A stretch of DNA of 64,000 nucleotides. Origin: Promethearchaeota archaeon (GTDB lineage Archaea > Asgardarchaeota > Lokiarchaeia > Sigyniarchaeales > SOKP01). The notes under the pieces were generated by a model that ran no database searches, was not told the origin of the DNA, and saw nothing but the letters and a program-made list of their open reading frames with translations. This document shows positions 27,534-32,681 of the stretch, piece after piece; the stretch's first letter is position 1, and each line of letters begins with the position of its first letter. The stretch spans positions 50,489-114,488 of the forward strand of contig JBHLMQ010000005.1 of assembly GCA_048938005.1 (NCBI GenBank), written 5' to 3'. Position numbers and translations under genes: made by a program.

Positions 27534-29063
27534 TTAATTATGATTTATTGTCTCTCCATATCCTATTAATCGATATCGTCTATTAATAATTCTCGAAATA
27601 GCATAAATAAAATTTTCTGGCGGACATATTGGAGGATTTAATTTTATTATAACACTATCCTTTAATATTTTTGTGACTGTTCCTCCTGTTTTTTCTGTAC
27701 CTACAACTAATAATAATTTTTCATTATGTTTAATTGAATGTACTCTGAGCATTTGCTCGGAACCAACTACTCGATCTAAAAGACTTATTTTTAATTTAAC
27801 TTCGTGAAGAACCTCGGGTAAAGTACCTGGTTTTCCAACCAAATGTCCTATTAAATGATCACCCTTAGTTAAAGAAGGATCTAATTTAGTTCCTAAACCT
27901 ATGAGTCCTCCTGGCTTCGCGATATCTAATAAATTACTTCCTTGACTGATACTCACGACTGTAGATTTAATAGGGATATAATCATCTTTTATTCGTAAAC
28001 CTGGGCGTATTTCAATCTGATCTCCAACATTAATTTTTCCTTTTAAAACTGAACCCCCTATTACACCGCCTTTTAAATCTTTAATTTCTTTCCCAGGACG
28101 ATTAATATCAAAAGATCTCGCGATTAAAAATTGGAATTCCCCTTTACTAAGTTCAGGGGATGGAATTATTTCTTCAAATCCTCTAATAACTGAACCTATA
28201 TTTGCTCCAAACACAGCTGAAATTGGTATAATCGGAGCATTTTCAGCAACTGTCCCTTTGATAAATTCCTTTATTTGGTTATAATTCTCGACGGCCTGCT
28301 CTCGTGAAACAGCATCGATTTTATTTTGTAAAATAATTAGATTTTTAATTCCTGCAATGTGCAGTGCTTCTAAATGTTCTCTTGTTTGTGGTTGAGGACA
28401 TTTCTCATCAGCAGCAATCAATAAACATGCTCCATCCATCAATGAAGCTCCACTTAACATTGTTGCCATTAAAATTTCATGGCCAGGAGCATCAACAAAT
28501 GAAATATTCCTTCTAAATTCTAATTGCCCTTTACAATTGGGACATACAAACCGAGATTGTCCTTTTTTCCTTTCCTGTTCAGCTAAGTAATAAGTTAAAT
28601 ACTCATCACAATTCGCACAATATAAAATTGTAGCGTTAGAATACCCTAATTTTATGGAAATGCCTCTCTCTTGCTCTTCTGAATGCCTATCTGTCCAATC
28701 TCCTGTTAATGCTTTCACTAATGTAGTCTTTCCGTGATCTACATGCCCTACTAACCCTATATTACATTCAGCTTGTCTTTTCATCAACTCTTTTATATTA
28801 GAAGATTTAGCTTTTGGCTTTACTTTTGAAACTGTTTTTACTTTAGATTTTGGTCCTTCTTGAATTCCAATTTCTTTAAGTAATTTATTGGCATTTGAGA
28901 TATATTTTTCAGCAGTTGCTTTTCCAACACCCTTAATCTTTAACTTTACCAAATCATCGAGTTTAACATTAGCTAATTTTTCAATAGAATCTATCCCTGC
29001 AGCTTTCATCTTCTCTGCAGTAGCTTTTCCGATACCAGCAATATCTGTTAAATCGTATGACAT
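27534..29063 (-). CDS. eif2g: Translation initiation factor 2 gamma subunit with N-terminal HhH domain
   Basis: QAECNIGLVGHVDHGKTT, ERGISIKLGY, Zn knuckle, DAPGHE, QNKID, RSFDINRPG, RYRLIGYG; N-terminal IAGIGKATAEK and IKGVGKATAEK. Confidence 0.95.
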   Translation of the reverse strand: MSYDLTDIAGIGKATAEKMKAAGIDSIEKLANVKLDDLVKLKIKGVGKATAEKYISNANKLLKEIGIQEGPKSKVKTVSKVKPKAKSSNIKELMKRQAECNIGLVGHVDHGKTTLVKALTGDWTDRHSEEQERGISIKLGYSNATILYCANCDEYLTYYLAEQERKKGQSRFVCPNCKGQLEFRRNISFVDAPGHEILMATMLSGASLMDGACLLIAADEKCPQPQTREHLEALHIAGIKNLIILQNKIDAVSREQAVENYNQIKEFIKGTVAENAPIIPISAVFGANIGSVIRGFEEIIPSPELSKGEFQFLIARSFDINRPGKEIKDLKGGVIGGSVLKGKINVGDQIEIRPGLRIKDDYIPIKSTVVSISQGSNLLDIAKPGGLIGLGTKLDPSLTKGDHLIGHLVGKPGTLPEVLHEVKLKISLLDRVVGSEQMLRVHSIKHNEKLLLVVGTEKTGGTVTKILKDSVIIKLNPPICPPENFIYAISRIINRRYRLIGYGETINHN

Positions 29064-32351: not shown

Positions 32352-32359
32352 TTATATAA
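32352..32359 (+). promoter_or_regulatory. TATA box of the 5S rRNA precursor
   Basis: TTATATAA starts about 25 nt before the outer processing stem (32377). Confidence 0.6.
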
Positions 32360-32376
32360 CTGTTAAAATTATCGTT

Positions 32377-32589
32377 TATAACCACATAAATTAGTAGCAA
32401 CTCGCTACTGCGCTGGAACCATCCGAACCCGGAAGTTAAACTTGTCAGCGTTATAGATAGTACTTCAGTTGCGAGTTACAACCCTTTCCGAGTTGTGAGC
32501 GAAATCTGTGGGAAACTATAAACTGTAAGTTCGCTTACGGTCATGGCTTACGAGGATAATACCCGGTCACGCTTGTTTATGTGGTTATA
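32377..32589 (+). repeat. Perfect 14-bp inverted repeat forming the precursor stem around the 5S gene
   Basis: TATAACCACATAAA (32377-32390) / TTTATGTGGTTATA (32576-32589); side hairpin AGTAGC/GCTACT at 32393-32409. Confidence 0.95.
32419..32568 (+). rRNA. rrf: 5S rRNA, circularly permuted, with putative 30-nt intron (32475-32504)
   Basis: CCATCCGAACCCGGAAGTTAA signature, loop E AGTA/GAAA; helices I-V can all be paired, but the conventional 5' part (GCTTACGGTCATGGC...TACCCGGTC, 32533-32568) lies downstream of the 3' part. Confidence 0.92.
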
Positions 32590-32681
32590 CGTGATTAACC
32601 ATTTTAAATTCATCTAAAATTAAGTTTTTATATTATTAATTATATCCTTTATTAATACTGAATAATTCTTTAATTGTAATC

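Follow-up and report, generated by a model that had tools for sequence, protein, structure and literature searches.

A putative bulge-helix-bulge intron in a circularly permuted 5S ribosomal RNA gene of an Asgard archaeon

Introduction

The only 5S rRNA gene found in the genome of a Promethearchaeia archaeon (Asgard, Loki-type) is circularly permuted and carries a 30-nt insert, and both the permuted unit and the insert are bounded by the archaeal bulge-helix-bulge (BHB) splicing signal, so that the RNA probably has to be cut and re-joined to give a normal 5S. In the absence of RNA data, cleavage, ligation, the order of the steps and the final topology are inferred from comparison of genomes; on this basis the permutation with BHB-dependent joining is considered very likely and removal of the insert likely, whereas a circular mature 5S remains a tentative proposal. 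The gene was examined in a stretch of 64,000 nt (contig JBHLMQ010000005.1, positions 50,489 to 114,488, of assembly GCA_048938005.1), referred to below as the window, in which all coordinates are given. The genome is archaeal, with an eIF2-gamma gene at 27534-29063 of the window.

A first-pass annotation of the window had proposed a BHB-flanked 30-nt intron in loop D of a 5S rRNA. This proposal is supported by the present analysis; however, the gene was taken for an ordinary colinear 5S and its permuted order was missed. Furthermore, the annotation expected excision to leave GCGA at the position of the usual GNRA loop D, whereas after removal loop D is the 7-nt TTGCGAT of the relatives and not a closed GNRA tetraloop.

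The features of the locus, all on the forward strand, are as follows.

32352-32359 (+): TTATATAA, a possible archaeal TATA box about 20-25 nt upstream of the leader stem (inferred from the sequence only).
32378-32390 (+): 5' strand of the long leader/trailer stem (ATAACCACATAAA), pairing with 32576-32588 over 13 bp and conserved in relatives.
32394-32408 (+): leader hairpin GTAGC-AACTC-GCTAC, directly 5' of the junction BHB, present in both gene forms with changed stem sequences.
32410-32419 (+): 5' half of the junction BHB, with outer GCG 32410-12, central CTGG 32413-16 and bulge AAC 32417-19; predicted cut between 32418 and 32419.
32419-32474 (+): 5S exon 1, comprising loop C, the 3' strands of helices III and II, helix V, loop E, the 5' strand of helix IV and the first 6 nt of loop D.
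32475-32504 (+): 30-nt BHB-bounded insert in loop D, the putative intron.
32505-32568 (+): 5S exon 2, comprising the rest of loop D, the 3' strands of helices IV and V, helix I as a hairpin (32522-29 with 32534-41, cap TTCG 32530-33), loop A and the 5' strands of helices II and III.
32563-32572 (+): 3' half of the junction BHB, with central CCGG 32563-66, bulge TCA 32567-69 (predicted cut between 32568 and 32569) and outer CGC 32570-72.
32576-32588 (+): 3' strand of the long leader/trailer stem (TTTATGTGGTTAT).
32603-32606 (+): TTTT run, a possible archaeal terminator (inferred from the sequence only).

Results

The BHB motif in loop D

The motif is present at 32466-32508. The outer helix is formed by CAG 32466-68 with CTG 32506-08 and continues into helix IV after one U.U mismatch; the central helix is formed by TTGC 32469-72 with GCGA 32499-502 (U-A, U.G, G-C, C-G); the bulges are GAG 32473-75 and AAT 32503-05, each 3' of its central strand; and the 7-bp inner helix is formed by TTACAAC 32476-82 with GTTGTGA 32492-98 around a 9-nt loop. 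This agrees with the definition of the BHB as a 4-bp helix flanked by two 3-nt bulges (PMC4090602). In pre-tRNA the first two anticodon bases lie in the central helix, which places each bulge 3' of its central strand and the cut after the second bulge base.

The host is a 5S rRNA, although Rfam at gathering thresholds found nothing in the window. ARAGORN found no tRNA there. With relaxed thresholds RF00001 matches 32384-32531 at 30.1 bits, below the gathering score of 38, with helix I mispaired and a 37-nt insertion where the model has 9, at the tip of the helix IV/V arm, which is loop D. The low score is explained by the permutation and the insert. This is the only 5S match in the genome, which is a draft of 3.72 Mb and 101 contigs with 95% completeness and 7% contamination.

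The geometry alone is not more than chance. A scanner requiring 4/4 central pairs, exact 3-nt bulges, an outer helix of at least 3 bp, an inner helix of at least 5 bp and a length of 14-60 nt recovered the motif with intron 32475-32504, but found 107 motifs of equal or better quality on the two strands of this AT-rich window, against a mean of 99.7 (range 77-125) in 20 dinucleotide shuffles. In addition, the isolated stretch does not fold unusually well (z = -0.68; 54 of 200 shuffles fold as well), and its MFE structure forms only two of the four central pairs. The coincidence of such a motif with one given site and length is, however, improbable, at about 2e-5 (107 hits over 2 x 64,000 positions x 47 lengths). 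The significance of the motif comes from its site, from the exact indel boundaries in relatives and from covariation.

Distribution and covariation of the insert

A DNA search in 40 relatives matched 23 of 24 genomes of the same genus and none of 16 from three other families, and many of the matches were about 30 nt shorter than the query. In an alignment of 25 loci, the intron-less genes lack exactly 32475-32504, the predicted excision, with a 1-nt ambiguity in the window itself because an A repeats; most congeners are of this kind. A covariance model of the conserved permuted core (R1), built from 26 sequences chosen for diversity out of about 45 units, matched 120 of 135 genomes of the family, essentially once per genome, at 83-124 bits. 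Of these 120 genomes, 19 gave hits of 135-137 nt instead of 105-108 nt.

Eleven of the 19, all in the window's genus, carry an insert of exactly 30 nt at the loop D site, in ten distinct sequences belonging to about three sequence families. All have a 4/4 central helix and two 3-nt bulges; seven pass the strict scanner and three pass with one mismatch in the inner helix. On the gap-free alignment of these sequences the BHB structure is paired in 93.2% of cells, against 80.3% in shuffles (0 of 500 reach the observed value) and 34-47% when the partners are slid. The central helix is paired in 40 of 40 cells, with two of its four pairs changed on both sides; for example, an exon TTAC goes with an intron GTGA and an exon TTGA with an intron TCAG. 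In all, 11 of 19 pairs show compensatory changes. In two genomes whose second bulge reads ACT or AGT, only the canonical cut after the second bulge base restores the conserved loop D. However, one genome, which was left out of this alignment, has a loop D insert of similar size with no canonical BHB and is a counter-example, and four genomes have an insert of about 31 nt in the helix I cap for which no strict BHB was found. It should also be noted that covariation proves a conserved structure and not its removal, and that sequences from kin are not independent, so the counts overstate the support.

A BLAST search of the 30-nt insert against the genome found no second copy, the best other match being 15 nt at E = 0.05. 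Assembled DNA contigs from four runs of four studies bridge the insert. Two are without differences, although one of these may be the source sample, and two have 14 and 23 differences, one of which, 32497 G>A, turns a U.G pair of the inner helix into U-A. No joint skipping the insert was seen in these DNA contigs.

Circular permutation of the gene

Two gene forms were apparent in the alignment. In both, the segment CTGTAAG-TTCG-CTTACGG is helix I closed into a hairpin, followed by the 5' third of 5S, namely GGTCATGG, then helix II and then ATACCCGG; the 3' two-thirds of 5S (loop C to the 3' strand of helix I) come first. The consensus fold of the 26 core sequences gives helix II across the hairpin, the helix V/IV arm and the helix I hairpin; 16 of its 26 pairs, helix I pairs included, have compensatory changes, and the cap varies as TTCG, TTAG, TTTG or TACG. 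The leader/trailer stem is contained in the MFE structure of 32370-32600 (z = -3.58; 0 of 200 shuffles fold as well). The possibility that the colinear Rfam alignment represents the true gene was rejected because form B genes lack loop C at that place and the pairing of helices I and II is poor.

In form A, which is that of the window, leader (GCG-CTGG-AAC) and trailer (CCGG-TCA-CGC) form a BHB whose cuts fall after 32418 and after 32568. In form B the break lies on the other side of loop C, with AGCG-CCGG-AAG in the leader and CCGG-AAA-CGCT in the trailer. Among 68 distinct units, drawn from loci that do not cover all 120 genomes, 65 have such a junction BHB in the same register (31 of form A and 34 of form B), with 26 different outer-helix pairs. 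The motif was not found in three units, in two of which one central pair is mismatched, and the outer helix is only 3 bp in the window. Excised lengths are 119-122 nt (38 units), 149-151 nt (24 units) and 180-181 nt (three units), that is, 120 nt plus 0, 1 or 2 inserts of 30 nt.

The two forms validate each other's predicted junctions. The 16-mer across the predicted ligation junction of form A is contiguous DNA in 19 of 34 form B units and in 0 of 31 form A units, whereas the junction 16-mer of form B is contiguous in 27 of 31 form A units and in 0 of 34 form B units. For the window, 32419-32474 plus 32505-32568 makes 120 nt. Opened in the cap, this in-silico processed RNA aligns end to end with 12 canonical 5S rRNAs of the sister family at 52-62% identity and folds into the three-way junction.

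RF00001 finds canonical 5S genes at 50-68 bits in 12 of 14 genomes of the sister family, including genomes with tandem copies. In the window's family it gives only 25-33-bit matches, in 15 of 41 genomes, the one exception being an 80.8-bit bacterial-type 5S beside a 23S end in one genome, which is taken for contamination. At class level, R1 matches 113 of 126 genomes of the window's family, the one genome of a third family at 78 bits and two of three genomes of a fourth at 48-53 bits, and gives only 35-38-bit partial matches on the canonical genes of the sister family.

Splicing machinery

The genome encodes two EndA paralogues of 198 and 205 aa (PF01974 at 104.7 and 73.8 bits), each with the N-terminal and catalytic domains and 30% identical to one another, as well as RtcB (PF01139 at 568 bits). 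Two paralogues fit the heteromeric (alpha-beta)2 type, which cleaves non-canonical introns (PMC5829648), although this assignment is an inference. The tRNA genes are heavily interrupted: ARAGORN finds only nine uninterrupted tRNAs, and 15 of the 27 RF00005 matches are 90 nt or longer. Eight of these 15 become ARAGORN tRNAs once one strict BHB intron of 22-45 nt is removed, against 0 of 15 before; the cut register could not be tested in this way, since shifting both cuts together leaves the ARAGORN verdict unchanged. A preprint on Asgard tRNA introns describes such genes (10.64898/2026.10.13.758758) and does not contain the word rRNA.

Discussion

The explanation favoured here, with reasonable though not full confidence in the absence of RNA data, is that 32378-32588 is the single 5S rRNA gene of this archaeon and is interrupted twice by the BHB signal. 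Transcription probably starts near the leader stem. After pairing of leader and trailer, EndA would cut after 32418 and after 32568, and RtcB would join 32568 to 32419, rebuilding helix III and loop C. Cuts after 32474 and after 32504, followed by joining of 32474 to 32505, would remove the loop D hairpin. The predicted product is 120 nt, colinear with ordinary 5S apart from helix I, which is closed by a tetraloop; it would have no ends unless opened by another nuclease.

The best-surviving alternative, although unlikely, is that the 30-nt element is an expansion segment retained in the mature 5S as an extension of helix IV, with an inherited or accidental likeness to a BHB. Insertions in 5S genes that have been studied experimentally are retained, as in Halococcus morrhuae and Thermoanaerobacterium (PMC7812874), the unspliced RNA still folds into a 5S-like three-way junction with a longer arm, BHB geometry is frequent by chance, and covariation alone does not distinguish a retained helix from an intron. 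However, a plain extension has no reason to keep two 3-nt bulges exactly 4 bp apart and a fixed length of 30 nt across ten distinct sequences. Furthermore, similar BHB-bounded inserts of 29-31 nt are located in relatives inside the 5' strand of helix IV and inside the conserved loop C, where retention would break the core structure, and the host RNA has to pass through BHB processing anyway.

It is improbable, although conceivable, that the loop D BHB is cut without re-joining of the exons, so that excision opens a circular pre-5S into a linear 5S with its ends in loop D. This would be analogous to the removal of helix 98 from circular pre-23S in Thermococcales, a circularized and then re-opened 23S being described for Pyrococcus and Thermococcus (PMC7758197; bioRxiv 10.64898/2026.03.23.713588), and the permuted gene should first give a circle. 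However, only 11 of the 120 genomes matched by R1 carry this insert, so it cannot be the general way of opening the circle; EndA products are the normal substrates of RtcB, which is encoded; and the helix 98 case is not attributed to a BHB in the descriptions consulted. A decaying or rearranged pseudogene, or an assembly artefact with the real 5S gene unassembled, is very unlikely: despite the sub-threshold RF00001 score and the contaminated draft assembly, the same architecture is found once per genome in 120 of 135 family genomes, closed single-contig genomes included, with compensatory changes in every helix, contigs from four studies carry the same DNA, and no canonical 5S was found in the family apart from the likely contaminant.

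The motif and enzymes are those of the BHB introns of archaeal tRNA and 16S/23S rRNA genes and a few mRNAs, and the cut after the second bulge base fits the indel boundaries found here. The host, however, is 5S rRNA, for which the literature searches found no reported BHB intron, and the element is a bare 30-nt hairpin with no ORF. The layout appears comparable with that of permuted tRNA genes expressed through a circular intermediate (Cyanidioschyzon merolae; archaeal cases of Chan, Cozen and Lowe 2011), where the 3' half would likewise be encoded upstream of the 5' half and leader and trailer would form a BHB. Here the native ends are closed by a 4-nt tetraloop with no linker that RNase P or tRNase Z could trim, so the product may stay circular, and the trait is fixed across a whole family with two alternative break points.

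Circular pre-16S/23S rRNA, circular 23S in archaeal ribosomes and the permuted 23S of Thermococcales (PMC12918454; PMC7758197; bioRxiv 10.64898/2026.03.23.713588) share a BHB in a processing stem and circularization of an rRNA by EndA and RtcB; those genes are colinear and circularization joins the natural ends, whereas here it is needed to build the conserved loop C. PMC12918454 states that 5S rRNAs are not processed by excision and circularization, and bioRxiv 10.64898/2026.03.23.713588 mentions rare circular pre-5S in two species without BHB motifs. Permuted mitochondrial 5S rRNAs (PMC4267664) share the circularly permuted order of the 5S domains with helix I closed, but are organellar, whereas the present gene encodes the cell's own archaeal 5S. 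The 5S expansion segments (PMC7812874; PMC7530397) likewise place extra sequence inside a 5S gene, and the authors of PMC7812874 note that untested insertions might be excised; the tested cases are retained and not BHB-bounded, whereas the present insert has the splice signal and precise intron-less alleles. No report of a permuted or circular 5S in archaea or Asgard, or of a BHB intron in 5S, was found in literature searches that did not extend to subscription journals or supplementary files. The new elements are the host RNA, the need for ligation to create loop C, the family-wide fixation with two break points and the 30-nt mini-introns at several sites.

5S rRNA is the one rRNA thought to be free of BHB introns and of circularization-dependent maturation (PMC12918454). 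In the present case one small gene carries two BHB sites, one of which is indispensable, because without cutting and ligation loop C does not exist as a continuous strand; this would make EndA and RtcB essential for the large ribosomal subunit in a major Asgard family. It also explains why standard rRNA annotation misses the 5S gene in these genomes, the Rfam scores staying below threshold. In addition, the gene offers a natural circular or permuted 5S for structural work and, with presence/absence alleles among congeners, two break-point forms and 30-nt inserts at several sites, a compact system for studying the gain and loss of BHB introns.

More tentatively, the ribosome in a whole family of these archaea may carry a covalently closed, circular 120-nt 5S rRNA that can only be made by EndA and RtcB from a permuted gene. 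On this reading, which is possible but not established, the gene has been re-permuted at least once, giving the two break-point forms, and 30-nt mini-introns have entered it at three or four sites at least, namely loop D, helix IV, loop C and perhaps the helix I cap. Ribosome biogenesis in these relatives of eukaryotes would then depend on the tRNA-splicing machinery.

Further inserts in the 5S genes of related genomes

In addition to loop D, inserts were observed at other positions of the permuted 5S gene in the loci of related genomes (loci and genomes are denoted by L and G numbers, respectively). A further 30-nt insert bounded by a BHB lies inside the conserved loop C in L023, L024, L070, L082, L083, L089, L095, L098, L106 (trailer part), with the central helix TCCG/CGGG and the bulges AAA (AAT in L089) and AAC. 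In L075 a 31-nt insert is located at another loop C position, whereas the loop C insert of L107 was not accepted by the scan for BHB motifs. Furthermore, in L103, L104 and L105 (from genomes G126, G050 and G144) a BHB insert of 29–30 nt lies inside the 5' strand of helix IV, 6 nt upstream of the loop D site identified in the first-pass annotation, with the central helix CTGC/GCAG; if retained, this insert would disrupt helix IV. In contrast, the loop D insert of L102 (G116), which is about 30 nt in length, has no canonical BHB and is flanked by a direct repeat, TGATA; it could be either a degenerate intron or a retained segment.

Splicing endonucleases, tRNA genes and other genes

The genome under study (G000) encodes two EndA paralogues that are 30% identical, located on two contigs (C26 and C56) as follows.

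G000:C26:1893-2117 (-), first EndA paralogue
G000:C56:18923-19171 (+), second EndA paralogue

In the pairwise alignment the second paralogue has KDS where the first has EHS and, as inferred from this alignment only, it may lack a catalytic histidine and act as a structural subunit. The tRNA genes of the same genome are heavily interrupted: ARAGORN finds 9 uninterrupted tRNAs, and there are 27 RF00005 matches, 15 of which are 90 nt or longer. Far fewer were detected than a full set needs, so many may carry several introns or be split or permuted.

An unusual domain arrangement was also found in a protein-coding gene of the window, namely an N-terminal helix–hairpin–helix domain (HHH_5, residues 4-53) in front of the GTPase domain of eIF2-gamma, which is an unusual fusion for this factor.

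Window 27534-29063 (-), eIF2-gamma ORF

A bacterial-type 5S with a score of 80.8 bits was found directly after a 23S-like end in G076, a genome of the window's genus (locus L032, G076:C68:17163-17272); however, this is most likely a contaminating contig.

Break points of the permuted 5S gene

GC-rich relatives in other families of the order, L045 (G026), G027 and G029, also match the covariance model of the permuted core, at 78 and 48–53 bits. In L045 the break appears to lie between helices II and III, although its junction motif was not resolved. Two alternative break points of the permuted 5S gene were identified, both of which occur within the window's genus. Form A, represented by the window with the two halves of its junction BHB listed below, breaks 5' of loop C (31 distinct units), whereas form B, represented by L017-L025 and other loci, breaks 3' of it (34 distinct units).

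Window 32410-32419, 5' half of the junction BHB
Window 32563-32572, 3' half of the junction BHB

The gene must therefore have been re-permuted at least once.
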